Shown here piece after piece: positions 186-51,658 of a DNA stretch of 64,000 bases. The notes beneath the pieces were generated by a model. It saw only the letters and a list, made by a program, of their open reading frames with translations, had not been told where the DNA came from and searched no databases. The position numbers were made by a program, and so were the translations under genes. Each line of letters opens with the position of its first letter. Position 1 is the stretch's first letter. The stretch comes from Leucoraja ocellata (taxonomy: Eukaryota): positions 8,618,001 through 8,682,000 of the forward strand of contig JAWMAR010000061.1 in assembly GCA_036785375.1 (NCBI GenBank), in the 5' to 3' direction.

Positions 186-203
186 GTGAGTATTTTGCAT
201 AAA

Positions 204-3735: not shown

Positions 3736-4290
3736 GTAGACAAAAATGCTGGAGAAACTCAGCGGGTGAGGCAGCATCTATGGAGCGAAGGAAATAGGCA
3801 AAGTTTTGGGCTGAAACCCGTCTTCAGACTGTTGTGAGGGTGGGGGAAGCGGGAAGAAGAAAGAAGAGGTGGAGCCAGTGGGCTGAGGGAGAGCTAAGAA
3901 GGGGAGGAGAAAGTAAGGTCTACCTAAATTTAGAGGTCAATGTTTGTACCGCTGGGGTGCAAACTGCCCAAACGAAATATGAGGTGCTGCTCCTCCAATT
4001 TACAGTGGTCCTCACTTTGGATATGGAAGAGGCCCAGGACAGAAAGCTCGGATTCGGAATGGGAGGGGGGGGTTGAAGTGCTGAGCCACCGGGAGATCAG
4101 ATTGGTTATTGCGAACCGAGCGGAGGTGTTTGGCGAAGTAATCGCCAAGCCTAAGCTTGGTCTCACCGATGTAGAGCAGCTGACATCTAGAGCAGCGGAT
4201 GCAGTAGATGAGGTTGGAGGAGGTGCAGGTGAACCTCTGCTGCACCTGGAAAGACTGCTTGGGTCCTTGAATGGAGTCAAGGGGGGAGTT
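3736..4290 (-). mobile_element. Penelope-like retroelement 3' fragment: GIY-YIG endonuclease plus pseudo-LTR
   Basis: ORF 4012-4314(-): QGPKQSFQVQQRFTCTSSNLIYCIRCSRCQLLYIGETK.RLGDYFAKHL...PVAQHFN; after a frameshift CKLEEQHLIFRLGSLHPSG; followed by the terminal repeat with a mutated hammerhead-like core near 3799-3827. Confidence 0.9.
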
Positions 4291-4730
4291 GGAGGAGCAT
4301 CTATTGCAGCCCACTGGCTCCTCCTCTTCCTTTCTTTATTTGAAACGTTTATACAAAGAACAATGCAACAATATTGTTGGAGGCAGTTGCCAGATCCCAG
4401 CCCTGGATGTTGTCTGTCGATTTCCTTCCACACATGCTGCCTGACATGCTGAGTTCCTCCAACACTTTGTTCAAGATTCCAGTGTCAGCACTCTTGTCTG
4501 CAGTTGTTTAATTTTTTTAATAAATAACTAAATGGTTGGAAATAATTTCAAGTTATTACTGTACCTTGCTGGACACTCCTTGTACAGGTAGTTGTTAAAG
4601 TAAAAGTTAAATTGCTGACAGTCCACAGATTATTTGATTCATTTGTGGAAGTAATGAAGAATAGAAAATAGTTATGCTTAATCATGCAGTTCTGAATTTG
4701 CAGGAAAATTACAAAAGTCACCTTGAGGGT

Positions 4731-5538
4731 CATAGAAACATAGAAAATATGTGCAGGAGTAGGCCATTCGGCCCTTCGAGCCTGCATCGCCATTCAATAT
4801 GATCATGGCTGATCACCCAATTCAGTATCCTGTTCCTGCCTTCTCTCCATACCCCCTGATCCCTTTAGCCACAAGGGCCACATCTAACTCCCTCTTAAAT
4901 ATAGACAATGAACTGGCCTCAACTACCTTCTGAGGCAGAGAATTCCAGAGATTCACCACTCTCTGTGTGAAAAAAGTTTTCCTCATCTCGGTCCTAAAAG
5001 ATTTCCCCCTTATCCTTAAACTGTGACCCCTTGTTCTGGACTTCCCCAACATCGGGAACAATCTTCCTGCATCTAGCCTGTCCAACCCCTTAAGAATTTT
5101 GTAAGTTTCTATAAGATCCCCCCTCAATCTTCTAAATTCTAGTGAGTACAAACCGAGTCTATCCAGTCTTTCTTCATATGAAAGTCCTGACATCCCTGGA
5201 ATCAGTCTGGTGAACCTTCTCTGTATTCCCTCTATGGCAAGAATGTCTTTCCTCAGATTAGGAGACCAAAACTGTTCGCAATACTCCAGGTGTGGTCTCA
5301 CCAAGACCCTGTACAACTGCAGTAGAACCTCCCTGCTCCTATATTCAAATCCTTTTGCTATGAATGCTAACATAACATTTGCCTTCTTCACTGCCTGCTG
5401 CACCTGCATGCCTACTTTTAATGACTGATGTACCATGACACCCAGGTCTCGTTGCATCTTCCCCTTTCCTAATCGGCCACCATTTAGATAATAATCTACT
5501 TTCCTATTTTTGCCACCAAAGTGGATAACCTCACATTT
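4731..5538 (-). mobile_element. CR1 (HER1-like) LINE, young 5'-truncated copy
   Basis: ORF 4822-5457(-) RDLGV...LVRPHLEYC.QFWSP...LRGDLIETYKI...FFTQRVVNLWNSLP = CR1 ORF2 C-terminus; 3' UTR and (TTTCTATG)n tail at 4731-4748. Confidence 0.95.
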
Positions 5539-5799
5539 TGGGAATGGGATTTCCGTCTCATGTTTGTATAATTTAAGTTTCCTTTTTCACTTTTTGCATT
5601 CTCCTTACACTTCCTTGATATGCTTTCCTTTCCTTTTGCCTGGAATAGTAATCATTTAACAGTAAAAAAGAGTGGAATTCCGATGTTGGTTTTGTTGAAC
5701 CTTTCACTGCCCTGGCGGCTGGAGCCAGTTACAGTTGATGGATTTTTATCCTGTCTCCTTACCTGTACATCTAAAAACTAAGGTGTGTAATACAGAACA

Positions 5800-6330
5800 C
5801 AAGATAACAGAAACAGAGGGAAGCCTCTTGGCTCCTCAAGCCTGCTCCACTGTTCAAAATCATCATGGCTGATCTACGCTTGTCTAAGTTCCATGATCCA
5901 GTTTTCAAGGTCCACAATTTTTTAGACTTTTCACATTTATTTATCCCTGCTATGAATATATCTATGATCTACCCTCCACCACCCTTTGGGGCAGAGAATT
6001 GCAGATATTCACTACTCTCGGAATAAATTTCTGTCCACGTTGATTTTTAAATGTTTCCTTGGTGTGCAGCATGTCCCTTAGTAACTTTCCAACTCAAAAA
6101 GAGCTCAACTTTTAACCCCCTTATGATCTAATAAATTGGAATTGGGTCACTCATTTTTCCAAACTGCAGACACAAACTTAAGTATCTCTCTCTCATCCAA
6201 GAATTAGCCTGGTGAATCTCCTTTGGGCTAACTCCAATACCACTATATCCTTTCATGGGTAAGGGATATATTGTGCACAGTATTCCGGGTGTGGCCACAC
6301 CAACATCTTGTAAAAGTGTAACAAAACACC
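5800..6330 (-). mobile_element. Older CR1 3' fragment
   Basis: Degenerate match to 4731-5538 (atcatggctgatc; LVWPHPEYCAQY). Confidence 0.7.
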
Positions 6331-7052
6331 TCGGAGAGAAAGGAAAAGACTACAGATGCTGGAATCTTGAGGGGAAAAAAACAGACTGTTGGAGTAACTA
6401 TGTGGGTCAGGCAGCATTTGCGAAGGGAAATGGATGGACCACCTCCCGAACCGAAATGTCGATTGTCCGCTTCCCTCTACAGATGCTGCGTAACCTGTTG
6501 TGTTCCTCGAGAAGCCTGTTTTTTGCACTTTATTCTTGAATTCCAAAACCTTTTGCAATAGTCTCAACATGCCAGCTGCTTCCTTAACTACTTGTTGGAC
6601 CTGCCTGCTTACTTTTTGTGATTCATGCCTCAGATGTTTTACTTTAATTTATTAAAACTAATTCAAATTTTGAACATATCAGTTGAACAAATTCCACAGT
6701 ATCTCTCACATTTCGTTTTGAAAATTACAGATCCCTTGTTTTAGTTTAAAAACAAATGACAGGAAGTAAGTAGTTGTCCAACACCAATGACATTTTCTTT
6801 CATTATGACTCGGTGAATGGAAATGACGCAATGAACAATGACCGATTTATTTTTGTTTACTCCCTTGGCCAGATTTATTGAGGAGACTAATTGTGTTTAG
6901 ATTGGGTAACTTCGTACATATAATTGTGAATTATGTGACGTGCGCATAGCTCGACTGATAATATTGTAGCAGCAGAAGTCGTGCACTGTTTCAAAAACAA
7001 CTCTAAAATAGAATGGTTATACGGTATTGGCGTTTGTGTGACTCTTGTTACA

Positions 7053-7370
7053 GGGCGGTGCAATGGTGCAGCCAGTAAAGTTACTGCCTTGAAGTGCCGG
7101 CGACTTGGCTACAATCTTGATCTGCGTATATTTTGTACGTTCCTGTGAATGCATGGCTTCCTCCATTTGTTCTGGTTTCCTCCCAATTCTCAAAGACATG
7201 AAGGTTGGTAGGTTAATTGGCCCCTGAATACTGCCACTATTTTGTAGTAAGTGTTGGAGATCATGGGGAATTGAGATTTAAAAAAAAAAGGATTAATTCA
7301 GGATTAGTATAAATGGGTAGAAATTGCTCAGTACAAAGTCAGTGGGCTGAAGGGTCAGTTTCCGTGATGT
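7053..7370 (+). mobile_element. HE1/V-SINE-like SINE
   Basis: gggcggtgcaatggtgcagc (A-box-like) ... ggtttcctccca...caaagacatgaaggttggtaggttaattggcc...gggctgaagggtcagtttcc. Confidence 0.7.
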
Positions 7371-8489
7371 ATTGCAATTACTGCACTAAGGTTGCATGTT
7401 TTAAGGAATCGGGGTTAGTTTTGTTTTCTAATTAATCCATTTTGTTGCATGGTGAAAAGTTTCCTTCAATCCAGTTTAGAGAAAAAGATTGTATGATTCT
7501 TGTGGTTAAATCTCTTTCTCATTCACTGACCTCGCTCCTATAGAGGAACAGTCGGCTTTGTAATTCTCTGAAGGGTTTGAAATGATTTCTGGTGACATCT
7601 GGCATTCAAAAGGATTCGCAGGTTTTGGTGCAGGGTTTACAGAAAGGATAAAGTGTTTTTAAGCTGCAAGAATGTTTTAGTTTAATGAGTTAAAGTCTTT
7701 GGTGAAGCTGAGCGAAATGCAATGTCTGGGCTTGCTGCTTCGGCTGCAATGGGAGTGGAGTTTCTGTGTGATGTCATTCCACTTTGCAGATTCTGACTCC
7801 TTGCTCACTGCAGTTTGTGTGATTGGTTTAATAATAAAACAATATGCTGTAACTAGGCGGTTGCTTAAAACAGTTTGTGTAATTGGGTTTCAGGCCATTG
7901 ATTTCTGATAAAGGCTGACGATCTAATCGTTGCTAAATGAGAGGTGATACAGGAGAAGAAAAGGTGCACACGCGTGTGTGCGTGCACGCGTGTGTGTCTG
8001 CATGAAATACTCTACCTTCAGTGAAATATGCATGATGATGCGCATTTGCTTTGTTTTAAATGCTTTATTTTCTTGAACTATTGCTTCTGAATGTGGAGAT
8101 GGAACATTCTCAAAGAAAATGAGCTATTTAACATTGATGTGGAAATGCTGATATTGGCCATTGTGATCTATATCATTTTTAAATTAATTTCTAAACTTTG
8201 TTCTCATGTTTATTGCTTTTCGCTGCCACTCGCTGGGACTGGATCTAGAATAATATGTTCAGTTTTGCTTTGCTTACTTAAAAGCATAGAGGGAATGTCG
8301 CAAGCATTCACCAATCTGGTTCTGGTGATACCGTTCATGAAGGCCATGATCGTGATAAATGATAGAGCAAGCTTGAAGGGCCAAATGGCCTCCACCTACT
8401 TCTAATTCTTACATTCTTATTATGCATTTCATCTTTCAGTCAAATTATAATTAATCTCTTTAGTTAGATGTAAATAATCATTTCCCATC

Positions 8490-8627
8490 AGTATGAAGAA
8501 CGGTCTTGACCTGAAACGCCACCCATTCCTTCTCTCCAGAGATGATTGATGCCTGTCCCGCCGCGTTACTCAAGCATTTTGTGTCTACCTTCGATTTAAA
8601 GCAGCATCTGCAGTTCTTCCCTACACA
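8490..8627 (+). mobile_element. Penelope-derived short element (pseudo-LTR, mutated hammerhead core)
   Basis: agtatgaagaacggtcttgacctgaaacgccacccattccttctctccagagatg...gcatctgcagttcttccctacaca. Confidence 0.85.
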
Positions 8628-8991
8628 TTTCGAATAAAGTATGTATCTCAAAAATTATGTATTAATTGTTAGGAATTTTGCTAATCTACATAGAACAGTG
8701 CAGTACAGCACAGGAACAAGACCTTCAGCCCACAATGTCTGTGTCTGACAATACCATATTCCTCCATTCCTGCATATCTATATGCCTATACAAAAATCCA
8801 TTATCGCATCTGCCTCAACCCTGCCCCTGGTTGTGCATCCCATGCACTCGCCACCCGCTCAGCAAAAAAAATGACCCGCGCATCTCTCACACTCCTCTCA
8901 CCTTAAAGCCATGTCTCTAGTATTTGATTCTTCCATCCTGGGAAATAAGTTCTGACTGTTTATACTCTTAAGCCGCTCATAATTTTATATA

Positions 8992-9057
8992 GTGTGATGC
9001 CCTCCCCCGCAACCACGCGTTGAGGGAACGGGATCCAACAGGTCCCATTTGGTCTAG
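8992..9057 (+). mobile_element. Possible Helitron-type 3' terminus
   Basis: GGGATC-caaca-GGTCCC hairpin (9030-9046), 7-nt spacer, CTAG (9054-9057) followed by T. Confidence 0.45.
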
Positions 9058-10640
9058 TACCCCCTGAAGATTATGTCCTGAAAAAACTTGGGCAAACTTT
9101 TCCATCTTTAGTTTCTATTCCCCTCCTCTATATATTTCTGGATAAAGTGCTGACTGCAAGGAGTCAGTCAGGGGAACTAACCAAAGAAAATTACTTGTCT
9201 GATCTGTTGAGGCTTACTTATCTGACCTTGCTGTATTTTTAATTTGTATTTTTTACCACTTGTCCTCATGCAGCTACCAAACAACATTAAACAGTCATAT
9301 TTGCAGTTAAATCAAGATTTATGGGGCAGACAATACCTCTTTAAGTAAAATTATCCTAAATTCATATTCTGATTCTCACCAGATTGCAGTGGTTCTCAGC
9401 AATTGAGTTTAGTTGAACTCAATTACTGAGAACCATTGCAATCTGGCGAGAGCTAGAAAATTTATAATAGAAAACACTTGTTTCAAGCATCAGCCAATCT
9501 ACGTATTTTCCACTTTTATCCAAGTATGCCATTTTAGTGGCTTGAATTATTCTATTACTGGTAGGCCACTTTTCATAAATTGGTCATTAAATTTAGTCCC
9601 ATCTCACTAAACCTCCACGACAGAAAGATACACTAAACTCAAACTTCCAAAAATGTTGAGTGAAGTGGCGAAGACATGGCAGAGGAACATGTGGAAACAT
9701 GGGAGTTCGTCCACCTGGATAGAAAAACTGGCATTGCAGATGAACAGGGTGTGAGGGGCACTGGATGCAAAGAGGAGTAATTAGCCTATTTGTCAGTGGT
9801 TCTTAACCTGGGGGTCGTTTTGGGCTTTACTGGGGGACACAAAGGGATCATAATTAACATCCATTTGTTGAGCCCTTTTTTAGGAACATACCACATACAG
9901 TATTTTGTTTGCGTATGTGCCTACGCATGCCAAAAAGATTAAGAAGCAATGATCTATATTCTGTTGGCAACAGAAATAGTGTAGGTAGAAATTTATAAGT
10001 AACTTGATTGCTGAAAACAAGCAACAATTTTACGTAACAATTTGTAATAGTGTCCCAAACACTATGGAGGGAACTGTATACATAAATATTTGCACTCATC
10101 TTTCTTGCATGATTTATGAAATATTGGAAGCAAAATTACAACTGCTTGTGGAAGGGATTTGGGGAGAGTTCTATCCTTGTTTCAACGTCTTTTGCCTCCT
10201 AGTTATTGAAACACATTTCTGCAGATTAACAGCATTCCCGTTTATTATATATTCAAATGCATCATAAAGTTTAGCCTACTACAAACTTCCAAACTTTGGT
10301 CAAATTGTGGACAGAAGATGATATAGAGGCTTCAAAGGGATAGAGACATGCTAAGCATATGGTCGTTAGGGTTAAGCTGCGAAGCAAAATTAGGAAATAT
10401 AATTGTGCTGCTAGTTGAGTTGCTCATTCTTTTAAAGGGGAGTCTAAAGGACATGGAAGACTCCTGCAAAGTTGCATGATTCTTTAGAGTTGCAATTTTA
10501 TTTGGTAATGTAGATAATTGAATCTGCCAAGGTATTTATTAATTGAGCCTTTTTTAAAGCTTTTGGATTGTTGTGATAACATTTTGCGTTCTTAAGTGCA
10601 GCCGGAAATGTGATTTCTACTTCTTTTTGTTGTATTTTAG

Positions 10641-10713
10641 GTCTGATATCATGAAGAAGGACTGGTCCTCTGTATGGATGTGTTATTAGTGCTGATGGCA
10701 CAACTGATCCAAT
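10641..10713 (+). other. MYO9A: MYO9A exon 2, 5' UTR portion
   Basis: Strong acceptor ttctttttgttgtattttag|g ending at 10640, 73 nt upstream of the ATG at 10714. Confidence 0.85.
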
Positions 10714-11556
10714 ATGAATGTGCATGATGTTGGTGGAAGACGACGATTTGAAGACAATGAATTTACGTTACGGGTATACCCAGGGAATATAGCAGAAGGC
10801 ACCATTTATTGCCCTGTCGCTGCAAGGAAAAGCACCAGTGCAGCAGAAGTTATTGAAATTCTTATTTACAAATTACAACTAGAGAAGACAAAATGTTATG
10901 TCTTGGCAGAAGTGAAGGAATTTGGTGGGGAAGAATGGATACTCAATCCAACCGACTGTCCAGTACAACGCATGATGCTTTGGCCACGCACTGCCCTGGA
11001 AAATAGTTTCAGCAGTGAGGACTATCGCTTCCTGCTTCGAGAGAAAAACCTTGATGGTTCTATTCATTACAACAATCTGCAGTCATGGCTGAGAGTGACG
11101 GAGGAGCGGCGGAGTATGATGGAACGGGGTTTTTTACCTCAACCACAGCAAAAAGACTATAATGATCTGTGCAATCTACCAGACTTGAATGAAAACACAC
11201 TTCTGGACAACCTGCGTAATAGGTATAAACAAGAGAAAATCTACACTTATGTTGGAACAATTTTAATTGCCATAAATCCTTTTAAATTTCTTCCTATTTA
11301 CAACCCCAAGTATGTAAAAATGTATGATAATCACCAACTGGGTAAACTGGAGCCCCATGTATATGCTATTGCTGATGTGGCATACCATGCCATGTTACAA
11401 CGCAGGAAGAACCAATGTATAGTTATTTCGGGCGAGAGTGGCTCAGGAAAGACACAAAGTACGAACTTCCTGATCCATCATCTAACTGCTTTGAGCCAGA
11501 AAGGATTTGCCAGTGGAGTGGAGCAGATTATTCTTGGAGCTGGACCTGTGCTAGAG
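10714..11556 (+). CDS. MYO9A: Myosin IXA, first coding exon (exon 2): Ras-association domain plus start of motor domain with P-loop
   Basis: MNVHDVGGRRRFEDNEFTLRVYPG...GEEWILNPTDCPVQRMMLWPR...ISGESGSGKTQSTNFLIHHLTALSQKGFASGVEQIILGAGPVLE, recognisably MYO9A; donor GAG|gtaaga; 843 nt, phase 0. Confidence 0.98.
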
Positions 11557-12136
11557 GTAAGATTCATCACGTGATTTCTTCTTGAGGGAATTGAAAGAAA
11601 ACTTTCCTTGAAAGTGAACAGATGTATTGCTTTATTTTTGTTTAACGGCAAATTCTCCATGAAGCAAGTACTGTAATGCTGTTTGTGAGACATAGTGTAC
11701 CAGTGCATCTGGTGTTAAAAATCTGAAACTCAAGCTGACTAATCAATGTAAATGTGTATCCCAGGTGCCTATAGGTTCCTCAAATCTTATTTTACCATGC
11801 CCCATGTCAGAAAATGTAATTTATGGTCCAACTCTCTCACTTGTCATTATATTAGTGATCAAATGTAAGTTTGATCGATTTCTTGTTTAAAGTGCTGCTG
11901 GCTAAATATTGAAGGTCATTCATTTTCAACATGGTAGTTAATTTCAAACTAGTTGGGTTTATAATAACAGCTGAAGTGTTGTGCATTGCATATGGTTATT
12001 TGAGTAACCTGATTTGCTATCAGCCTGTTACTGATTAATGTTGATTATTGGAGAATTCAAGTGCAAACCTGATGGATGTTTGGTTAGCCGTCCGGTGCTG
12101 AAGGTCATTGTATTGCTGGCTGGGTTCATATTTGTT

Positions 12137-12229: not shown

Positions 12230-12465
12230 CATTGGCATTCCAGAAGTGGTATTGTCAGGTAGTGTTCTGCATTAAGTAATTGGAAATGAGCAATTGATTT
12301 TTCATTTTCTTCCTGAGTGGCTTATTTTCACATTTCGGATGCATCCCATTTGACACATACTCAAATTTTACAGTGGGTATCAGTTACCAGATAGTTACCA
12401 GTTGCAGAAATCTTGTTAATTCTATCCTGTTAACACAATTCTCACTCCAACAAAAATTGCACAAA

Positions 12466-12640
12466 AGATAGACAGAGTGCTGGAGTAACTCAGCAGGTCA
12501 GGCAGCATCATTGGAGAACAAGGATGGGTGACATTACAAGTCGGGACCCTTCTGCAGACTGAATTACTCTGACCTGCTGAGTTAGTCCAGCACTGTGCGT
12601 CATTCTTTGGTATAAATAAGCATCTGCAGTTGATTGTTTC
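12466..12640. mobile_element. Penelope-derived fold-back element, diverged
   Basis: Minus-oriented arm (gtgctggagtaactcagcaggtcag...) followed by plus-oriented arm (ctgacctgctgagttagtccagcac...gcatctgcagtt). Confidence 0.75.
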
Positions 12641-12949: not shown

Positions 12950-14280
12950 AAACATTTTTAGTGAAGAAGCAATTTACTTTTGTTACTTTCAACTTAAAAT
13001 ACTTGATTTGGTTCACATGTGGTTGTCTTTACATTGTGGAAACAAAGCCAACTAGATTACTGTTTTCTATCTGCAGTGGTGACCTTGAATATTCAACTTG
13101 CTTGTCACTTGAACTTTCCATCCCACTCCCACCTCTGTTTTTAATCTCGAAATACTGTTCCAACAAATATCGATGCAAGCTTGAGGATAGAAATCTCCTC
13201 TTCCAACTTGGCATGTTACGGGCTTCAGGGCATGTTACGTGCTTCAGGGCTCGGCATTGAATTTTTAAAAATCACGAAAGTCAGCCATTCTATTGTTGCA
13301 TCTCATGCTATCAACATTTAACGTTTATTTATTTTTCCTCTGGTATTATAGATATAATTTATCTTCAGTTTAAGCCTCCTCAGTTGTACCCTTTGTTATT
13401 CCCTAGCCTTTATAATAGTCTTTTTCTGCAACTGAAAACTTGATTTTTGACTGTTTCCATTTGTGATAGTTGGTTCTGATTCTCTTTCCATAGAGTATTT
13501 GTTCTGTTTAGAGAACATTTTCACAGCATGCACATATTCACAGGAGCCTGCATGGTTACAAGCTATGCCTTGCTCTTTGTGGGTTATGTGGACAGACCTT
13601 TCTTTGGTTTACTCGGACCCCTCCTTCATATCTGTAGCATGAATGACTATATTGTCCCTGCCCTTGTATAGAACTTCAAGATTTATCTGCGTAGGAAGGA
13701 ACTGCAGATGCTGGTTCAAACTGAAGATAGACACAAACCTGGAGTAACTCAGTGGGACAGGTAGCGGCTCTGGATCTCAAACGTTACCCATTCCTTCTCT
13801 CCAGAGATGAGGGGGTGGGGTGGGGGGGGGGATATGGACTGGATGCAGATCAGTGAGATCAACTCAGCTTAGCAACTTGTATGCATGGATAAGTTGGGCC
13901 AACAGTGCTGTTTCCATGCTATATAGCTTAATGTCTGACTCCAGTTTGGTTAATTATTCCAATTTCGCCAGCTCTGCATGTTTTGAAAAAAGAATACTGC
14001 TTCTGAGATGGCTTCCTCTATGTCTGACTATATTTCCCTCCCACTTGGGTTGCGCTCTCATAGTTCTTAACCATGCCTGGTCTATTTCCCGCACTTATAC
14101 TCTAAGCCCTGCCAGCATCAACATACCAGCATCATCCTCCATAGTTTTCATCACCTTCAATGAGATGCCAACTCTAGACGCATCTTCCACTCTGAGCATT
14201 CCAGTGGGTTACTTATGGAACACTTTGATTTGCTTTTTTTCTTCTATTTCCATCAACTGCACGGTTTCTGAGAACAATTA
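12950..14280 (+). mobile_element. Degenerate Penelope-like remnants (endonuclease and RT parts) interrupted by younger repeats
   Basis: FTF..FNLKYLI...CGCLYIVETK and RCKLEDRNLLFQLG in ORF 12943-13260; SYALLFVGYV-like trace near 13560; short fold-back element at ~13688-13809. Confidence 0.55.
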
Positions 14281-14454
14281 TGCAAACGTTAGAAGGGATC
14301 ATGGGATATGGGGGGAAAAGCAGGAATAGGGTACTGATTTTAGATAATCAGCCGTGATCATATTGAATGGCAGTGCTGGCTCGAATGGCCTACTCCTGCA
14401 TCTATTTTTCTATGTTTCTATGTTTTTTCTAATTCAACACGGAAATTGTTGCTA

Positions 14455-14551
14455 AGGTAGAAACAAAATGCTGGAGTAACTCAGTGGGACAAGCAACATC
14501 TCTGGAGAGAAGGAATGGGTGACGTTTCGGGTCGAGACCATGCTTCAGACT
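14455..14551 (-). mobile_element. Penelope-derived short element
   Basis: Reverse complement agtctgaagcatggtctcgacccgaaacgtcacccattcc...; core mutated in the CUGANGA box. Confidence 0.85.
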
Positions 14552-19383: not shown

Positions 19384-19977
19384 TGTTCTTGGGAGCAAAG
19401 AGGTCCTTCTGCAGTTGCACAGGGTCCTGGCGAGACCACACCTGGAGTATTGTGTGCAGTTTTGATCTCCAAATTTGAGGAAGGACATTCTTGCTATTGA
19501 GGGAGTGTAGCGTACGTTCACAAGGTTAATTCCCGGGATGGCTGGACTGTCATATGTTGAAAGAAAGGAGCGACTGGGCTTGTATACATTGGAATTTAGA
19601 AGGTTGAGGGGATCTTATTGAATCATATAAGATTATTAAGGGATTGGACAAGCTAGAGGCAGGAAACATGTTCCCAATGTTGAGGGAGTGCAGAACCAGG
19701 GGCCACAGTTTAAGAATAAGGGGCAGGCCATTTAGAACAGACGAGGAAAACCTTTTTCACCCAGAGAGTTGTGAATCTGTGGAATTCTCTGCCTCAGAAG
19801 GCAGTGGAGGCGGATTCTCTGAATGCTTTCAAGAGAGAGTTAGATAGAGCTCTTAAAGATATGGGGAGAAGTCAGGAACGAGGTACTGATTGTGGATGAT
19901 CAGCCATGATCACAGTAAATGGCGGTGCTGGCTTGAAGGGCCGAATGCCCTACTCCTGCACCTATTGTCTATTGCCT
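19384..19977 (+). mobile_element. CR1 LINE 3' fragment
   Basis: Reverse complement of ~4750-5340; RPHLEYCVQF.SP..., (ctattgt) tail. Confidence 0.93.
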
Positions 19978-22935: not shown

Positions 22936-23931
22936 TTTCCAAGAACATTACACACACAACTTCCATCTTCTTATCAAGGTTCTAAAGTGCACTGACATCT
23001 TTACCTTTGTGCTCAAATCTTTTGGGAATAAGGTCATGTTAGTCTTCATTGTCATGGACCCAACAGCAGTGGTTCAGGAAGGTGCTCACCACCACCTTTG
23101 CAGCGATTTAGTAATGGGTGATAAATGCTCACCTTTGCATGCAAGTCAGATCTTGAAGAATTGAAGAGAAAAAATATGTAGACTATCACCATCACTTCAT
23201 CTGTTCCTCAGCAAATGTACCCTGGTTGGCTCTCAACAACAAATAAGGCAATTGACATAGCGTTGGCTTAGTGTTCTGTAACTGGAGAGACACTCTTTTT
23301 GGCCATAGGTTTATCACTCACTGCTTCCATATGGGAAATGCTGAATCGTCTCCAGCACTTGCAGCAAAGGAACGTGGCATGTGATGAGTGGGTATATCAG
23401 ATTGATGAATACTGCTTTCTTCAGTACTTGATTTCTGTGGCAACGAGCTGAACTACTTTGAGCAGGATGGGCGTGGGACTAACATCAGAAATTCAAATAT
23501 TTGTTTAAACAAGTCGAGGCATTGTACTTGAGTTAAACAATGGAAAACAAGTTAAAGCCAGATTAAATATCACTTGGTGACTGGATTTTGACATAATTAA
23601 TTCCATTGGTATGCATAGTTAGTGTACACAAATCAGAAATCATTGCTGGAGAAACAGTACAACTTAGAACATTCTGAAGTTTTGATCACAGGTTAGGTTT
23701 GAGAAACTGTCACGGTATTGATTCTGATGCTTTCAATAATTGACAATTACAAAACCATCCCTGTGATGTTTTCATCAACTTCTGCCCCCTCAGTTGTTGC
23801 CATACAGAATGCTCTGTGGAATGCAGCGTAATGTTTAGAGCACTGTACTTTTATTACAGCAGATACATGAACCATCAAAGATAATTGTATGAGATTCTAA
23901 TTGTTTACTCAGGCATAATTACTGCTAGAAA

Positions 23932-24216
23932 AGTTAGATACAAAATGCTGGGGTAACTCAGCAGGACTGACAGCATTTCTGGGGAGAAGGAATCGGTGAC
24001 GTTTCGGGTCGAGACCCTTCTTCAGACTGACAGGGGAGTGGGCTGAACAGAGATAGAAAGTAGTTGAAGACAGTAAGACTGGTGGGAGAACTGGGTAGGG
24101 GGAGGGGTGGAGAGAGAGGGAAATCAAGGGCTATTTCAAGTTAGAGAAGTCAATGTTCATACCGCTGGGGTGTAAACTACCCAAGCAAAATATGAGGTGC
24201 TGTTCCTCCAATTTCC
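23932..24216 (-). mobile_element. Penelope-like element 3' end with intact hammerhead-like core
   Basis: KLEEQHLIFCLGSLHPSGMNIDFSNLK endonuclease tail; core CTGAAGAAGGGTCTCGACCCGAAACGTC at 24025-23998. Confidence 0.9.
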
Positions 24217-24564
24217 AAATGCTGCTGGACAACTTGCCTTGTCTGGTTATTTTGTTGGTATTCCAGATACTAGCCCATTGTAATATCATTTCAGTTATAA
24301 CCCTTTTGAGACATTATCTTCCACCATAACATAGTGAATGCTTCAATCCCTACTTTTCTCTGTAAAATGATGAAGTTAAGAGTTCCTGGTCAGTGAGAAT
24401 TCCTCATTGTGATTGACTAGCTTGTCTACCTGATGGTGTTACTGTTGTTAAATGAAGACCAGTCATCCATGGCCTGTCACCTGTCACCCGATAACCAATG
24501 TAAGGAATTCATGCCAGAGATAATGACAGATCTTTACAATCCAAGTCGGCAATAAATACCATCG

Positions 24565-24711
24565 AAGGTAGACACAAAATGCTGGAGTTACTCAGCGGGA
24601 TAGGCAGCATCTCTGGAGAGAAGGAGATGCTGTCTGTACCGATGAGTTACTCCAGCATTTTGTATCTACCTTCGATTTAAACCAGCATCTGCAGTTCTTT
24701 CCTACACATAG
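24565..24711. mobile_element. Penelope-derived fold-back element without core, 12-bp TSD
   Basis: Inverted arms; taaataccatcg at 24553-24564 and 24712-24723. Confidence 0.85.
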
Positions 24712-24818
24712 TAAATACCATCGCTTCATTACTGACAACAAGAGTTATTTGAGCCTTACATTTTGCAATCATTCCTCCCCCTTGAACTCCCATCCCTCCT
24801 TTCTCTCCACAACCGACA

Positions 24819-26039: not shown

Positions 26040-27360
26040 GTGGCCTTTGACAAGGTCCAACATGGGGAGCTGGTCTGAATGGTTTGAACCCATGGGATCC
26101 AAGGCTCCAAATTTGGGTTGTTAATAAGAGACAGAAATGGAGCTGTGTTTTTGTGATTAGATGCCTTGTGACCAGTGGTATACCACAGGGGTCACTGCGG
26201 GGACCTTTACAATTTGTTATAAACATTACCAGGATGTAGATGTGTGAGCAATGAGTAGTATGTTTGCAGATTATGCTAACTTGGTGTTTTTTTGATAGTG
26301 AGGAAAATGGCTGACTACAGGATGATGTAGATTAGCTGGTATGATGCAAAGTGGAATTTAAACCTATACATGTGAGGAGAAGCACTTTGGGAAGAGTAAA
26401 CTGGGAACATACACAATAATTGGACGCTTACCTAAATCACAGTTATGTCTCTCACAGTTAAGTGGAGTTAAGCATGAGATAAAGAAGATCTGGTAGGAGT
26501 AGTATTTATGGTAATCTACCTGTGGTGAGATGACATACTATAGAGAAATGTAGATCGTTTAAATGACTAGTCAAAGATCTAACACATGGACTGTAGGTCT
26601 TGTGCTTGGATTCACAAAACGCTAGTTGCAGGTTCAACATGTAATATGGAAAACTAACAATGTTACTTATTGATTTGAAAATGGAATAGAAAGGTTGGGA
26701 GGTTACGTTTCAGATATGTAAAGCATTGATGAGACGACATCTGGAGTACTTGATACGGTATTGATCTCCTTGTTTAAGGGAAGATGTAAATGTATTTAAA
26801 GCAATTTAATTTTCCTCAACTAATACCTCTGATGAGTATGTATTATAAGGAAAAGTTGGGTAATTGAAATCTATATCCACTTGAACTTTGAAGAGTTAGA
26901 GGTAACTTGATGGATATATGCACTATGCTGAGAAGACTTAACAGTGTGGGTGCAGAGAGGTTGTGGGAAATCTTAAACTAGAGGTCCCTATTTACAACTA
27001 AGTGCTAATCAATTAAAGGCAGATGAGACAGAATTTCTTATCCTCAGAGAACCTTGAATCTTTGGAACTCTTCCCCAAAGGTAGCAGAGTTGGATAGTTT
27101 ATGATCAAGTAGGAGAAAGGTTATCAAGTTTAGATGGAAAAGCACAGTTGAGGTTATAATCAGAACAACCATGAAGGTATTAAATGTTTAAGAAAGAACT
27201 GCAGATGCTGGGAAAATCGAAGGTAGACAAAAATGCTGGAGAAACTCAGTGGGTGAGGCAGCATCTATGGAGAGAATAAATAGGCGATGTTTTGGGTCGA
27301 GACCCTTCTTCAGATTAAATGGTGAGCAGGCTCAAGGGGCTGCGTGGTCCACAGTTCCTA
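26040..27360 (+). mobile_element. Old CR1 ORF2/3' UTR remnant with nested Penelope-derived element (27187-27313)
   Basis: AFDKV.H, VTSGIPQGS.RGP, MFADY traces; nested insert flanked by attaaatg at 27179-27186 and 27314-27321. Confidence 0.8.
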
Positions 27361-28735: not shown

Positions 28736-28866
28736 CTGAAGAAGGGTCCCGACCTGAAATGTCAATAGTCTGAAGAAGAGGCCTGACCCAAAACGTCACC
28801 TACCCATATTTTCAGAGATGCCACTTAACCCGCTGAGTTACTCCAGTACTTTGTGTCTTTTTTACA
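28736..28866 (+). mobile_element. Penelope-derived element with two tandem hammerhead-like cores
   Basis: ctgaagaagggtcccgacctgaaatgtc (28736-28763) and ctgaagaagaggcctgacccaaaacgtc (28770-28797), then the usual pseudo-LTR body. Confidence 0.8.
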
Positions 28867-31637: not shown

Positions 31638-32053
31638 GTTAGTATTCAAGTTTTGCCGTGCCAGTGGTGAGATACCAGTTCACCACTATTCATCCTCAAG
31701 CTATGCATTCAGATAATTGTCAAAATATGCCAGTTGTTACATTGAATATTTCAATAAAATGGTTATTGCAATAGACTATCTGTGGTGGCTGAAGCAGTCA
31801 GTGTTTCAGGTAACTAATCTTTGATCAGAATTCCATCATAACACCAAATCATTTGTACAGTTAAAATAATGAGTATCTAAGAATCACTTAAAATTGAGAT
31901 GACTCATCTGGAGTAAAAATTAATAACTTTAACATTGTTCTTCAGAAAAGAATATTCTGCTTTCTTTCCACAATAAACATGCTATAATTTGAGTTTGTCA
32001 ACTATGAGAACGTATAAGCATTGGAATGATTAAGGTGGTACATTGGATATTGG

Positions 32054-32135
32054 TGGTAGACATAAAATGCTGGAGTAACTCAATGGGACAGGCAGCATCT
32101 CTGGAGCGAAGGAATGGGTGACGTTTCTACAGAAT
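32054..32135 (-). mobile_element. Penelope-derived short element, 12-bp TSD
   Basis: attggatattgg at 32042-32053 and 32136-32147. Confidence 0.8.
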
Positions 32136-32494
32136 ATTGGATATTGGCGATTCCATTCATGTTTTTGCGTGGGGAAGGTAGATTGCTGTTTGTTTATTCT
32201 TTGTGCTTGAATCAGAAGATTGTTTAAGCCTCAAGCTTAGGTGTGTCATCTTGGCAGTTTTTAACAATTGCATACCAAATGGGGTGTGTTATTTATGAAG
32301 TGTTAAATTCAGGTCGTCTCTATGAATACTGATAGATACAAGGCACTATTTGTAGAAATATTATCTCAAAATCTTTTAACTGTTTGTGTGTTTTTAATGT
32401 ATGAAGACTGTTTTATGTAATTAGCAACATTGTAAAAGCAACGAGTTTGCATTAAGTCTTTTGAGGCATGAAGTCATTTGAAACAAAGTATTTC

Positions 32495-33125: not shown

Positions 33126-33759
33126 AGTGTGTGTAAATTCTGACATTTTTGTGGCGATCCATTTTGTCCAGTGACTGATCTCAGGAAGCGTTTATCTCGT
33201 TTTAACAAGCCTAGCAAGTCAGATGTCTGACCGATGTAATCTATGTGCTGTCATCTTTTCAAAGCTGTGGTTATCTTTATGAATTTAATCATTACAAATC
33301 TAGTATTATAGAAAGCCCCCTTCCTCTCCCCTCCACAGCCAACATGCACAACCATGCAAGTTAGTTTATAATTTCAACACATTTCTTCATCCCATCTTTT
33401 GCAAAAAGCAAAATCATCATGAATAAATGATAACATGAGGAAAATCACTGACAGTGGTGCAGTGAATCTATTTGAAGATCTTTCTGTCAAGCCTTTTATG
33501 AGCTTTGATCATTGATGTTAAATCTCCAGTTGTATCATTTAATGAGATACCACATGATCACTTGTAATTAAGAAGGCTTGTTTGGTCTCATCCCTCCACA
33601 ATACTAATCCTGTCATCTTATTTTATCTTTAATTAAACCCCTCTGAAGCACAGTACCTCTAACTTTGTAGAATGAGCTTAACACTGCAATTAAATGAAAC
33701 GCTATACAATGTATTCAAATTGCAGCATTAACTGCTTGCTTGACTGTACCCACATCCAA

Positions 33760-34002
33760 CCTGAAGATAGACACAAAATGATTTGAGTAACTCAGCAGGA
33801 CAGGCAGCATCTCTAGAGAGATGGAATGGGTGAAGTTTCGGGTACAACCTGAAGATCCAATCCACATTCAGTCTGAAGAAGGGTCTCGACCCGAAACGTC
33901 ACCCATTCCTTCTCTCCAGACATGCTGCCTGTCCCGCTGAGTCACTCCAGCTTTTTGTGTCTATCTTCGGTTTAAACCAGCATCCGCATTTCCTTCTTAC
34001 AC
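33760..34002. mobile_element. Penelope-derived fold-back element with intact hammerhead-like core (+), 12-bp TSD
   Basis: acccacatccaa at 33748-33759 and 34003-34014; core at 33873-33900. Confidence 0.9.
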
Positions 34003-34298
34003 ACCCACATCCAAACTGCCTTCTTGCTAATCTCATTGCCCCTCACTCTCGTTTGCCTCGGTTCCTTATGGTGATCTTTGTCTGCCAACCTGAGAAAACT
34101 CTTTGTCTGACTCTCTCTCTGTCTGCATACAGGGGCTCATTCTATCTGTTTGTCTGTTCGTGCTCCCACCACGAACTACCCCCTCATGCAAAGGAAGTAC
34201 TCGTAGTTGATGACATCAGGCGAACTGTTTCATCATTCTGCTGAGAGCTCAGTATTTGTGCTGCCCCTCAAATACTGGACTAACATCTGGAACATAAT

Positions 34299-34537
34299 TG
34301 TGTAGGAAGGAACTGCAGATGCTGGATTAAACCCAAGATAGATTAAAAAAACTCAGTGGGTCAGAGAGCATCACAAGAGAAAATGAAAAAGTGATGTTTT
34401 GGGTCGAGACCCTTCTTCAGACTGCCTCACCCGCTGAGTTTCTCCAGCATTTTTGTCTACCTTAGTACCGTGGATGATCACAGGCTTTTTTTTCACTGTA
34501 GCTGGATTTTCCAGCATCTGCAGTTCCTTTTTAAACA
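34299..34537. mobile_element. Penelope-derived fold-back element(s), diverged
   Basis: Minus arm with mutated core (~34393-34420) then plus arm gcctcacccgctgagtttctccagcatttttgtctacctt. Confidence 0.8.
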
Positions 34538-35101
34538 TCCACTGTATCTATGCCACTCATGATTTCATGAACCTCAGCCGCCTATACTCCACAGAAAATA
34601 GTCCCAACCTATCCATTCTCTTGTCATAACTCCAATCCCAGAAACATCCTTCTGAATCTTTTCTGCCCTCTCAACAGCTTAATCACTTTGGTTTTGAGCA
34701 GACAGATGTATGTTTAGAGCATGCTGTTTCAGCTCCTTTATATTGGGCATTGATTAGATAGGAATAATTATGGTGCATGAATTAACTTCCAAAAGTCCTC
34801 CCTCGGTTGCATAGAACATAAAGCAGTCCAGCACAGTTTCGGCTCACGATGTTTGTGCCGATCATGATACCAAGTTAATCTCTTCTGCCTACATGTAATC
34901 CATATCCCTCCATTTTGTGCCTACTCATGTGCTTATCTAAGTGCCTCTTAAATGCTCCTTTCATATTTGCCTCCACCATCATTCCTGGCAGCATGTTCTA
35001 GCATGTTATAGCTGATGCTCTCTAATCCAAAATTTTACCTCACTGCTCTAATTTGCTCTCAGTGAATCAAACATTTGTTGATGGACCTGGACGAATCTTA
35101 A

Positions 35102-38457: not shown

Positions 38458-38511
38458 GTAACGTAAAATACAGTAGAATGACTGTACAATTTGTATTCTG
38501 TGAATGAGAAA

Positions 38512-38705
38512 TGTGTAGGAAGGAACTGCAGATGCTGGTTTAAACCGAAGATAGACACAAAATGCTGGAGGAACTCATTTGGAACAGGCAGCATCTCTGG
38601 AGAGATGAAGTCTGAAGAAGGGTCTCGACCCGAAACGTCACCCATTTCTTCTCTCCAGAAATGCTGCTTGTCCCGCTGAGTTGCTCCAGCATTCTGTGTC
38701 TTATC
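38512..38705. mobile_element. Penelope-derived fold-back element with intact hammerhead-like core (+), 16-bp TSD
   Basis: ttctgtgaatgagaaa (38496-38511)/ttctgtgaatgggaaa (38706-38721); core at 38612-38639. Confidence 0.92.
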
Positions 38706-39114
38706 TTCTGTGAATGGGAAACATGACTTCATAATCAACTTTTTCTGTGGTGGCAATATTAAATGTTGAATTTCAGGCAATGTTTAAAAGAAATATAACT
38801 GATTAAAAGAAATATAATATCTACATTTGTTTCATTATAACAACAATTATGACTTAAATTTCATTTTCAACAGGAAGCTAAATTTTCATTGACCTGAATG
38901 AAATTGGTCCTTGGTCTGTCTGTCTTTGAAAGGAAAGAGAAAATTAGATTGCTCAAATTGCTGTCTGCTCATGTTCTTTATTCCACATGTAGTATTTATA
39001 TAAAACTCCAAGCATTCTTTTGTGTTATTGCAGCTGGCTTCAATGGTGTTCAACAGGGTTCCACAGTTAGTTTGTGCCCTCTGCTAGGACAAACTGATCA
39101 ATTGCATTTACTAC

Positions 39115-42991: not shown

Positions 42992-43091
42992 GTAAAATTG
43001 ATTTCATGATTCTTATCCCCTGAATGAGAAGCTCAACATTGCATCGTCCTAGGCGAGGTTGCCAGTTAGATTTGTTGGTATTTTAGTCTTA

Positions 43092-44692: not shown

Positions 44693-44790
44693 ATTTCTCA
44701 CAATATAGAATGTGGGACAGTAAAGCACAGGAACAGGCCAAAGATTTCTCACAATATAGAATGTGGGACAGTAAAGCACAGGAACAGGCC
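44693..44790 (+). repeat. Exact 47-bp tandem duplication (period 51)
   Basis: atttctcacaatatagaatgtgggacagtaaagcacaggaacaggcc at 44693-44739 and 44744-44790. Confidence 0.95.
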
Positions 44791-44919
44791 TCTCAGAAGG
44801 GTCTCGACCTGAAACATCTCCCATTCCTTCTATCCAGAGATGCTGCCTGTTCCGCTGAGTTATTCTAGCATTTTGTGTGTCTATCTTCGGTGTAAACTAG
44901 CATCTGCAGTTCCTTCCTA
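44791..44919 (+). mobile_element. Penelope-derived short element inserted in a CR1 tail
   Basis: cacaggaacag at 44777-44787 and 44920-44930; CR1 continues 44920-45250 on - strand. Confidence 0.8.
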
Positions 44920-46597
44920 CACAGGAACAGACCCATCAGTTCACAATGTGCAGAGAGTGTTACCAGATTAAACAAATTCCTTCTTTCTGCCTGTACGTAA
45001 TCTGTGCCCTCCATGCTCTGCATATCATGTGCTGATCTAAAAGCCTCTTAAATGCCACTGTCGTATCTGCTTCCATCGCTACCCCTGGCAATACATTCCA
45101 GGCACCTACCACTCTCTGTGTAAAAGGAAACTTGCTCCGCACATCCCCTTTAAAGTTTCCCCCTCTGACCTTAAAGCTATGCCCTCTGGTATTTGACATT
45201 TCCATGCTTAGAAAAAGATTCTGAGTCTCCTGTTTATGCCTCTCATAATTAATTATACTATATGTGATTGAATATATTTTTTTAATACTATCCTTGTTCC
45301 TTCTTTGGTAAGAGACAATATCTTATTTAAATTTTGTCCACCCTTGCTTCTTTGCAACTGTTTCATATTGAAGCTGTTCTACCAAGTGCCACTTTAAGGA
45401 AAAATGTGACAACTGGATATTGGTACACGATTATTTTCGAAGTTATTTAATACTAGTGTTCACAATCCTCGTGGCTCTGTGCCAACAATTCAAACAATAT
45501 TGTTTTTCTTCAATGTTCTGTTCCTTCTACGGTCACACACAAAGTGAGATTTTTTGTTTCTTGTTGCATACCCGAAGATAGTGTCACATGAAGTGTTCCA
45601 TGAAGCAGCAGCTGACATTTCAGGTTCTTTGTTTTGCTGTTCAATAAGCTGCATTTTTTGCATTCAAATATTACAGAAAGTCTTCTGTCTATTCTTGGTC
45701 AGCTGCTCCTGCATTGTAGGCATGCCCTGCGAGTCAATCTGAATGAATTCATTCATCAGGCAGCATTGCATGAGGTACTGTCATACTCTCCTTCAATTAG
45801 ATTATAAAGCAGACATGGCTACAGCTCTCCAATTTAAACTGCAGCTAATTATTAACCACTCTTTCGCGCGTTCTTTCATTTTCCTTGTTCATAATTGAAA
45901 CCGTCTCAGAGGAACTTTTGACTTCTATTTCCTGGCAAAGTTTTGCGCAATGTATTCAGAAAACAAAAAGCGAATATTTCTCCAGGGATATTACAATTTT
46001 ACCCTGTCAGGAGAAACGTGGAGAGGGAAAAAAGATTCATTTCACTGAGACAAAAACTGGAACAAATAAAAGATATTTGCATCTCCCAGCAATTAATTCT
46101 TGAATAAAAGCTTTGAAAATGCTTGAGACAATTAGCAGGTTGGGCAGCATCTATGGGGAGAGGAGTAGTTAATGTTTCAAGACGATGATATAGAACCTAG
46201 AACAGTACAGCACAGGAACGAGCCCTTCTTGCCTACAGTGTTAGTGTCAAACATGCCAAGATAAGCTAATCTTAAAAGTAAAAAACAAGATTTTTGAATT
46301 TGTTTGCATTTTTTATATCCCAAAATAATTTTTAAAGTATTATTTCACTGTACCTCGGTACACATGACAAACTAAACCGAACTGTTAATAAACTAACACG
46401 AGACAATAAACTAAACTGGTCAGGCCCTTCAATAGGTAAGCAGCTTATAGGACAACACTTCGCCATGGACACCAACAGCAAGGAATGATATGCGTGCCTG
46501 CGTCTTTTGGTCCATAAAAAATAGCACTGTGGACAATAAATGTAGACATTTCCAGCAACATCCATCTCGTGTATTAACAATAAAGATACTTGTACAT

Positions 46598-46683
46598 AGG
46601 GTCTCAACCCGAAACGTCACCCATTCCTTCTCTCCGGAGATGCTGCCTGTCTTGCTGCGTTACTCCGGCATTTTGTGTCTATC
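46598..46683 (+). mobile_element. Penelope-derived short element, 5' truncated within the core
   Basis: agggtctcaacccgaaacgtcacccattcc...; tacttgtacat/tacttctacat flanks. Confidence 0.8.
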
Positions 46684-47507
46684 TACTTCTACATCGAAGG
46701 GAGTGAAGACGTACAGACAAGATATTTAAACCACATGTCCACCCTTATTAACAGTGCTGTTTTGATCTTGAAGCATAGAATGTGGAAGCGTGTATTAATA
46801 TCACAGTGTAGGATAAGCCATTTTCTTTGCATGATGGCCTGGACATATTGATTTCCCTCATTACACATCTACCATGATGTCAGTTGACAATTGATTTATC
46901 AGTACAGTACTGAGCCAGAAGCCAAGAAAGTGCCAGACTGAATTCCCGACATATATCAGCCCACCTACGCTCGACAGCATCTGCAGTTAAAATCCCAAAT
47001 AGTTTATTGTTTTACTCAGTATGGATTTGCACATGGGCAGCAGTAGCATACATACATTTCAGTTACTGTATCAGAATAATGTACTTTAAAGAATGCAAGA
47101 TGCTTGTTTCCACTATTACTAGCTTTCTCATTTCTCTTCCAAAAAAACCCCAAAACCAATGAAGTGATCCATCATTGCACTCAAGGGAAGTTCTCTTTGT
47201 ATGTTGTAATTTAAAAAATTCAAGATCAACATTCATGAGGAAGTGAGAAGTGATATATTTAGTGCATAACTAATAAGATGACCCAGTTTATAATCCTCCA
47301 AATGGATTCATCTCAAAGCTGCAAGGACACAGTTGTGAATATTTCTTTTCTGTAATTTCTAACCTACATGCACAACCGACCCATCATCAATGTGAATATC
47401 AAACTCCTTGGCTTCTGTTTAAGTCACAGTGTTGCTTTCCTCCTCTGTTCGCTGTTTCCGCCAGGCTTTTCTGTTCCTCATTATATGGGCGTATATTCCT
47501 CCGTATT

Positions 47508-47724
47508 TTCACACAAAGGGTGGTGGGTGTATGGAACAAGCTGTCAAAGGAGGTAGTTGAGGCTGGGACTATCCCAACGTTTAAGAGACAGTTGGACAGA
47601 TACATGGATAGGACAGGTTTGGAGGGATATGGACCAAACGCCGGCAGATGGGACTAGTGTAGCTGGGACATGTTGGCTGGTGTGGGCAAGTTAGGCCGAA
47701 GGGTCTGTTTCCACACTGTATCAC
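47508..47724 (+). mobile_element. CR1 3' tail fragment
   Basis: ttcacacaaagggtggtgggtgtatggaac...ggccgaagggtctgtttccacactgtatca. Confidence 0.88.
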
Positions 47725-50689: not shown

Positions 50690-50960
50690 TTGGCCTTGAA
50701 AAGGTAATGGCAAGCTGCCATGTATCAGTGTGACAAAGGAACACCCATTGTACCATAGGGGTGGACTTTCAAGGTGCAGATCCAGTGACAATGAAATATA
50801 TATTTCTAAGCCAGCGAGATGTGAAATTTGGAGGGGAATATGCAGGCTGCGTTCTAATTCCTTATGTAGCTATGTATGTGGTTTGGGAGGTACATTTGGA
50901 CATATGGTAGATGTACTGCAGCCACTGTGAGTGATGGGGTGTAATCATGTGTTCCCAATA
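50690..50960 (-). mobile_element. L2/SacSINE1-related 3' remnant
   Basis: ccttgaaaaggtaatggcaagctgcc is the reverse of the ggcagctcaccaccacctt tail also seen on + at ~23065-23130; degraded. Confidence 0.5.
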
Positions 50961-51480
50961 GGGGAAATGCATGCTCGCAGTATGCACCTTGGATGACCCT
51001 CCCCACTTCAGAATCATGTCTATTAAGCTTAACTCTCATTCTATTGTACTGTTGGGTTTATACTGCTCTACCTTCCTTCAAGTGCCACCCACTTCATCAC
51101 AGGAATTGTGTCGGGTAGCAGCCTCCTGTGCATTTAGGAGGACTACATGCACATGAAGTAGATGCCAATATGGAGACCAAAACTGTGTGCAGAATTCCAA
51201 GTATAGACACCCCGGCCCTCTTTAAGGTGGTAGAAAAGTTGTTGTGCTTTGACATGCACACCTTTTGCCAAAAAGGCCAGCATTTCATTAGCCTTTCTAG
51301 CTACGTGGAATAATTGCATCTCACTTTTCTCGACTCACGTACTTGGACCTTCAGATCGCTTTGTACTGCGACATTTTGTGGTCTCGCTCTATTTAAATAA
51401 TTATATGGTTCTTTCCAGAGACTCATGTTTGCCCACATTATACTCCATCTGTGAATCTTGCCCACTTACTTAATCTATCA

Positions 51481-51658
51481 AAGGTAGACAAAAATGCTGG
51501 AGAAACTCAGCAGGTGAGGCAGCATTTATGGAGAGAAGGAATAGGCGACATTTCGGGTCGAGACCTTCAGAAGGGTCTCAACCCGAAACGTCGCCTATTC
51601 CTTCTCTCCATAGATGCTGCCTCACCCGCTGAGTTTCTCCAGCATTTTTGTCTAACTT
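51481..51658. mobile_element. Near-perfect palindromic Penelope-derived element
   Basis: ~88-bp arms around centre ccttc-a-gaagg (51569). Confidence 0.92.

Follow-up and report, generated by a model that had tools for sequence, protein, structure and literature searches.

The genome of Leucoraja ocellata carries a short and very abundant repeat, which is exemplified by 28 copies in a 64,000-nucleotide stretch of contig JAWMAR010000061.1 (positions 8,618,001 to 8,682,000 of the forward strand, assembly GCA_036785375.1), referred to here as the window. The repeat comprises a 95-nt head, which opens with a minimal hammerhead ribozyme motif, and an optional tail of about 35 nt. To judge by sequence, it is the pseudo-long terminal repeat (pLTR) end of Penelope-like elements that encode a reverse transcriptase (RT) and a GIY-YIG endonuclease with a Neptune-type linker. 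The order within the element is the end of the open reading frame (ORF), a subfamily-specific pyrimidine tract, CAGT, head, tail and an ATG at about +164, where +1 is the C of CUGA in the head. The 5' ends of the copies pile up about 30-fold at one site, the edge of the hammerhead core, and inverted pairs of copies carry, as a rule, exactly one tail. A first-pass annotation of this DNA had suggested either a ribozyme-bearing, non-autonomous mini-retroelement family or a highly stereotyped truncation-inversion product, and the pile-up bears out the second description. It is proposed, with a confidence slightly better than even, that the short copies are dead products of target-primed reverse transcription that starts at two sites in the head and runs off at the 5' end of uncleaved RNA.

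Five-prime ends of the copies and the parent element

Copies were found with a profile built from 49 natural copies, with a cut-off score of at least 30 in the window. The sample of 1,234,000 bases comprises the window, 20 neighbouring stretches, six core-dense picks and 91 arbitrary 10-kb stretches, and yields 708 matches at scores of at least 20 and 639 at scores of at least 30. Extrapolation from the 421 matches in the 910 kb of arbitrary stretches gives about 1.6 million copies, which would make up about 4.5% of the DNA; these absolute counts may be inflated because the assembly contains near-duplicate loci (for example L001/L010 and L081/L082). The exact 28-nt core has 21,383 matches in the 3.44 Gb of the genome and its reversed control none.

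The start of the core is reached by 345 copies, and 339 of them have 250 nt of upstream sequence: 165 have unique sequence as their flank, 98 adjoin an inverted arm, 61 continue into shared upstream sequence, eight stand in tandem and seven have one partner. Ends were counted on the 567 copies that could be classified and whose 3' end lies at +84 or further along. Between -5 and +4, 232 of the 290 copies still extending come to an end (0.149 per nt), compared with a background of 0.004-0.005 per nt upstream and 0.003-0.007 per nt at +25 to +60. Solos taken alone behave alike (148 of 206 end at -5 to +4), as do high-scoring copies, 121 of 164 of which stop at the edge. This is not what dead ends with random breakpoints, the reading that the first-pass annotation had set against its own, would give. 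Exact target-site duplications (TSDs) of at least 8 bp surround 42 of 315 solos (eight with shuffled flanks), and 30 of the 42 begin at model positions +1 to +4. The cleavage site shows no excess of ends, with 15 at +27 to +31 compared with 24 and 17 in the neighbouring bins, and a class of copies starting there was rejected.

The pile-up could also be an artefact, in which randomly truncated copies seem to stop together where divergent upstream regions fail to align; the head is found behind no fewer than four distinct upstream regions, and others that are rare may have escaped notice. The TSDs, however, adjoin the edge, the high-scoring copies split alike, and the unique flanks are not pyrimidine-rich (14/165, against 43/61 long copies and 10/165 controls). 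This reading is highly improbable, being largely refuted by the TSDs at the edge and the composition of the flanks. Eight of the 165 unique flanks match any of 155 long-copy upstream regions, and none of the controls does. Genome-wide, 9,433 of the 21,383 exact cores are preceded by CAGT, 2,965 by AGT after A, G or T, and 8,985 lack the AGT.

The same edge recurs in copies that retain the start of the ORF. After removal of five duplicates, 30 retrieved loci leave 25 independent ones, of which 18, labelled by eye, begin at this edge. Sixteen of the 25 have the order head-ORF start-head, with the second head 190-1,340 nt downstream and starting at +1 in 14 of the 16; five such units have a 10-16 bp TSD around the whole, in an uncontrolled count that includes one weak case. 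Run-off followed by a template jump would be expected to produce this order.

Genome loci matching two ORF-linked copies of the window form a smooth upstream ladder of 5' truncations. The longest (L081-L083) join RT motifs to a GIY-YIG domain through a CX4CxxC linker, all in one element with broken frames. Their Pfam matches (RVT_1 at E 1e-4, GIY-YIG at E 1e-3 to 3e-3) all lie below curated cut-offs, their atlas matches at 0.96 are RT clusters, and the linker is found in all three loci, two of which are near-duplicates. A CX2-5CxxC linker between RT and endonuclease is a feature of the Neptune and Nematis clades (PMC8557442; here and below, statements on published work refer to excerpts of the papers cited). 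Partial tandems running from ORF end through head and tail to ORF start are present in L194, L199 and L200, and a pLTR lies upstream of the ORF start in L214, L221, L223 and L234 as well; a strict pattern for one subfamily group finds the head followed by an ORF start at 99 places in the genome. With RT motifs, linker, GIY-YIG domain and partial tandems all linked to the head, the origin from a Penelope pLTR that had been claimed for the repeat is supported.

Several peculiarities of the longer loci may be recorded here. The pyrimidine tract of long copies (for example window 3828-3925(-) and 24026-24140(-)) has intron-like, GTAG-like and CAG/T borders, and its sequence differs wholly among subfamilies with a common head. 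L200-L207 represent one partial-tandem element, which lies in a larger unit with near-identical versions on at least eight contigs. In L167 three heads (742, 2405 and 4062, all (+)) share the same upstream sequence at a spacing of about 1.66 kb and thus form a head-carrying tandem repeat. Between ORF start and RT, L081, L082 and L199 contain low-complexity tandem peptide repeats of differing unit, which recall the inserts of rotifer elements (PMC3846280).

Head-to-head pairs and the origin of the short copies

Head-to-head pairs number 118 among the 639 sampled matches, compared with 11 tail-to-tail pairs. TSDs surround 31 of 88 head-to-head pairs and none of the controls, so that many pairs are single events. 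Exactly one arm carries the tail in 75 of 90 classifiable pairs (p 9e-11 against even chance; 28 pairs are unclassifiable). The arms belong to one subfamily in 60 of 66 typed pairs, with six discordant, where the chance expectation is 0.35. The 3' ends of the sampled copies are bimodal, at about +92 to +102 and +128 to +133, and the borders of the optional tail correspond to RT start sites in an anole element (PMC11167929).

In the proposed mechanism, RT would start at either of these sites, 95 or 132 nt from the beginning of the head, and run off the likely 5' end of the uncleaved element RNA just before the hammerhead core. The pile-up would then mark the RNA 5' end and probably the transcription start, in an edge sequence, TCAGTC, which we take to be initiator-like. 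Fold-backs would not be single strands that turn back on themselves but two cDNAs from two nicked target strands, one per start site, with their run-off ends joined. Longer copies would call for a jump between templates or for an RNA that reads through from a partial tandem. Twin cDNAs primed from two target strands at two start sites are a likely fit to the one-tail pairs, and the six discordant pairs would need two RNAs. In vitro, both target strands are cleaved and extended (PMC11167929). The substrate there is unprocessed RNA (PMC11167929), which together with the lack of cleavage-site ends makes an uncleaved template likely. A transcription start at the edge, the preferred reading, would cover solos, arms, ORF-start copies and jump-like mini-tandems together.

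A number of points weigh against this mechanism. The edge is blurred by a shoulder of 119 of 409 ends at +5 to +14, in part perhaps through alignment trimming. A capped end should leave a cap-G signature, but G stands before AGT in 35 of the 100 non-C cases listed, and at junctions fixed by TSDs a single additional G is not consistently present. The RNA evidence consists of assembled contigs, which are incapable of showing starts; among four contig sets aligned to L223, three runs contain loose ends, themselves heterogeneous, that fall at 1496-1499, where the core lies at 1501, a weak sign because other upstream subfamilies would yield such ends too. Sense jumps into the ORF amount to 4/165 in the unselected sample, some resembling plain deletions, and the ORF-start loci were chosen by a pattern that requires a head. 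Head-to-head junctions have been explained by self-priming (PMC3846280), which may hold for the pairs that are not discordant, and the in vitro study (PMC11167929) leaves the one-tail rule unexplained because start-site use showed no strand difference there. Finally, Drosophila virilis Penelope has its start farther upstream, by 46 nt and an intron of 75 nt (PMC2377424), that intron ends at helix I (PMC4209133), and the pile-up site of the Leucoraja repeat itself also resembles a 3' splice site.

The intron end at helix I also favours an account in which the copies have the same origin, with the pile-up set by a 3' splice site, a hairpin barrier at the core or an endonuclease cut at resolution instead of transcription start; this we regard as possible though doubtful. 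In several long-copy subfamilies a pyrimidine tract lies between GTAG at the end of the ORF and CAG/T at the edge, a predicted competing hairpin begins at about -3 to +1, and the tail has been ascribed to endonuclease resolution (PMC8557442). Spliced genomic copies, however, are not found for the one donor family searched, whose spliced junction has no match in the genome at up to one mismatch against 16,309 unspliced ORF ends, and no GT..AG joint is found among the 15 listed of 91 joints. The base at -4 before AGT (C 46, G 16, T 10, A 9; n=81) follows nested upstream retention and not the base profile of exon ends, and a structural block would be expected to halt the enzyme on the 3' side of the hairpin.

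Run-off at the RNA 5' end can be extended to a scheme in which Penelope transposition passes through a strong-stop intermediate and the short copies preserve it, like fossils, across the whole genome, a tentative idea that we hold to be rather unlikely. The RNA would start inside helix I and so disable its 5' ribozyme, and a protein dimer would prime both target strands at the two tail boundaries and run off the RNA 5' end. The complete 3' hammerhead would cleave to leave an RNA end in which the first ~30 nt are repeated and which would serve strand transfer as an R-like acceptor. If true, the scheme would give the Penelope hammerhead a role and would bring the one-sided tail under a single explanation with pseudo-LTRs, tandems and inversions.

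A separate family of SINE or retrozyme type, as the first-pass annotation had entertained, is not supported. Here the short form would be non-autonomous, with its own sources, transcribed from the hammerhead edge and mobilised in trans. It does have stereotyped lengths of about 95 and 132 nt, its own TSDs and a very high copy number, and the arrangement of two-core mini-tandems (L260 included) fits the two-hammerhead criterion of bioRxiv 10.64898/2026.07.22.740005. Short and ORF-linked copies are nevertheless intermingled: in a five-nearest-neighbour test with 219 short and 55 long copies, the share of long copies near long copies is 0.207 against 0.196 when permuted (p 0.41), and all three subfamily types occur in both classes (p = 0.11 for the table), so no subfamily is private to short copies. 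Diagnostic mutations private to short copies are likewise not found, with power limited by the 55 long copies and by divergence noise, and one haplotype with six short and no long copies lies within chance at such numbers. The copies are not arrayed, since the 639 matches include 352 solos and only 25 direct neighbours, nor do their ends follow the ribozyme cut; mini-tandems are a rare class with individual junctions, and short copies lack the ORF start that was required for template use in PMC11167929. Separate mobilisation is accordingly judged improbable. The closest approach to a retrozyme-like array among the sampled loci is L260 (about 1400-1650), where three core-bearing units of about 75 nt stand head to tail.

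The hammerhead core and the copies of the window

The minimal hammerhead motif is present as previously described, with CUGANGA, GAAA and NUH boxes, stem II and a palindromic helix III, and 51 of the 639 copies keep all of these. Stem II is better drawn as 4 bp with a CUCG or UUCG tetraloop than as 5 bp with two loop nucleotides, and helix I, which the earlier description omitted, has only about 2 bp. All catalytic bases are kept in 96 of 250 copies reaching +1, and 51 also keep stem II and the ACGU palindrome. The box columns are more uniform than the remaining columns (0.967 versus 0.853, partly ascertained by the search), and box uniformity across subfamilies would fit selection in parent elements; changes in stem II are one-sided only.

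The hammerhead-constrained fold lies 3.6-7.9 kcal/mol above the best competing fold (14 rows), in a prediction that pairs the core with pyrimidines lying behind it, and single copies are predicted to misfold. An upstream extension of helix I beats swapped partners (p 0.007) but not shuffled ones (p 0.64) and is not separated from base composition. An Rfam scan finds no match to hammerhead models in the window at E <= 1. It returns five weak matches to microRNA precursors, at least two of them on fold-backs; the hairpins 9367-9458 and 59348-59429 are weak matches to microRNA models outside the Penelope head family. Cleavage by published relatives is weak and occurs in multimers or in the presence of protein (PMC4209133, PMC11167929). 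Given core decay, the ~2-bp helix I, the competing fold and the weak relatives, the copies are unlikely to self-cleave widely in introns, and the suggestion that the copies seed self-cleaving sites is thus doubtful. The hammerhead is likely to be a passenger in the short copies, any function residing in the parent RNA. A rescue of the ribozyme by fold-backs through helix I was considered and rejected, since the closure that the arm provides at 38511-38711 is shifted by about 4 nt relative to the core's register, and since a core present on both arms of a pair is buried in the duplex. The companion suggestion of double-stranded-RNA-forming sites is plausible, as a prediction only, from fold-back hairpin energies of -50 to -154 kcal/mol; at about 96 head-to-head pairs per Mb these would be a large predicted source of intronic double-stranded RNA.

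Within the window, 15 of the 28 matches are on the (-) and 13 on the (+) strand, and 27 fall within 3736-51658, in agreement with the more than a dozen copies in both orientations first noticed there. The three cores called unmutated are exact (CTGAAGAAGGGTCTCGACCCGAAACGTC at 23998-24025(-), 33873-33900(+) and 38612-38639(+)), and all five TSD pairs reported are exact (12, 8, 12, 12 and 11 bp). Attachment to a GIY-YIG tail, claimed for two copies, holds for one. At 3727..4290(-) a 5'-truncated element of subfamily B comprises the GIY-YIG half of the ORF, the pyrimidine tract and a head with mutated core and no tail, and the motif at 3736-4290 has a Pfam E of 0.001, below the curated cut-off. 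The other, 23930..24216(-) of subfamily A, claimed as 23932-24216, retains only the last ~25 ORF codons, the pyrimidine tract and a tailless head with the intact core at 23998-24025.

Head-to-head fold-backs, also noticed before, amount to six pairs in the window. An older pair with one tail lies at 12458..12639. The pair 24558-24709 (24553..24723 with its 12-bp TSD, 24553-24564 / 24712-24723) has one tail and no core. One tail and an intact core on the (+) strand are found both in 33758-34003 (33748..34014 with a 12-bp TSD) and in 38511-38711 (38496..38716 with an 11-bp TSD). The arms of 34298-34538 (34298..34465 in the parts delimited) seem by eye to be of different subfamilies, and the near-perfect pair 51475..51659 has no tail on either arm. 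A rearranged copy lies at 13687..13810, with a tail-bearing arm on the (-) and a short core-side piece on the (+) strand.

Solo heads with a tail occur at 8494..8628(+), from the 5' edge of the core (model 2-132), at 27179..27321(-), where an 8-bp TSD adjoins the first base of the core, and at 44795..44924(+), from model +5 and with an 11-bp TSD. A 51-bp direct duplication at 44703-44796 lies directly upstream of this last copy and overlaps its TSD. Tailless solos are 14452..14548(-), from the 5' edge of the core (model 1-97), 32042..32147(-), from model +21 with a 12-bp TSD, and 46598..46685(+), from model +8. At 28736..28864(+) a core fragment is followed by a second, older head, and another older head, at 60735..60825(-), lies beyond 3736-51658.

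The window also contains an exon of a myosin IX-type gene at 10708-11574(+) (matching Pfam RA and Myosin_head over 10708-11571), and a second such exon at about 60765-61253(+) was identified by eye. Since the window lies inside this gene, the copies are likely to be intronic, on both strands. Fragments of other LINE-type retrotransposons were recognised by eye, from translations and repeats, at 190-678(+), 4822-5586(-), 19392-19867 and 55824-56025.

Comparison with known Penelope-like elements and retrozymes

Neptune- and Nematis-type endonuclease-positive elements share with the Leucoraja element a single ORF of RT and C-terminal GIY-YIG domain, a Cys-rich linker and partial tandems (PMC8557442, PMC3846280), as well as heavy 5' truncation, an inverted 5' copy, an optional 30-40 bp tail at one end, 8-10 bp TSDs and solo pLTRs. 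Their truncation is called variable, without a pile-up at a single site, and the one-tail rule is described but uncounted in the excerpts (PMC8557442, PMC3846280). The Leucoraja ATG, about 135 nt downstream of the cleavage site, is also unlike these descriptions. As counted features of the sequences, the 5' stop site and the one-tail rule are without counterpart in the literature searched. No account of a 5'-end pile-up at the hammerhead or of the family in cartilaginous fish was found in a literature search that did not extend to Repbase or Dfam, which may name the family, and a term search of a preprint on shark and ray genome size (bioRxiv 2025.06.08.657570) found no mention under repeat terms.

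The hammerheads of Penelope pLTRs have the same boxes, the extra base after CUGANGA, the G-C closing pair and the palindromic helix III; they too are mostly single motifs ascribed to truncated elements, with opposite-strand pairs 100-700 bp apart (PMC4209133, PMC6765202). Stem II of the Leucoraja motif, with 4 bp and a tetraloop, is shorter than the published ones, helix I of about 2 bp is as stated for D. virilis (PMC4209133), and copies are vastly more numerous than in coelacanth and frog, for which 4,000-9,000 are reported (PMC4209133, PMC6765202). In vitro, the anole element Poseidon resembles the Leucoraja repeat in its two internal RT start sites bounding the tail, the extension of both strands and the use of uncleaved RNA, its ribozyme being inactive without protein; its ORF, in contrast, starts inside the hammerhead, and the text available describes neither a 5' run-off site nor one-tail pairing (PMC11167929).

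Non-LTR retrozymes are likewise pLTR-derived, non-coding and hammerhead-bearing (PMC7229834, bioRxiv 10.64898/2026.07.22.740005) and have been reported in one cartilaginous fish (bioRxiv 10.64898/2026.07.22.740005). They form head-to-tail arrays processed at the ribozyme, the well-studied cases having canonical hammerheads and circular RNAs (PMC7229834, bioRxiv 10.64898/2026.07.22.740005), whereas the Leucoraja copies, with their minimal motif, lie scattered as solos or in head-to-head pairs. How Penelope-like elements complete integration and what their hammerhead does are stated to be open questions (PMC11167929, PMC8557442), and about 1.6 million short products with one 5' stop, none at the cleavage site and one tail per pair constrain the mechanism. 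The minimal hammerheads, inverted 5' arms and tails are themselves published features of the Penelope-like class, as excerpted, and the Leucoraja repeat family is an ordinary member of this known class.

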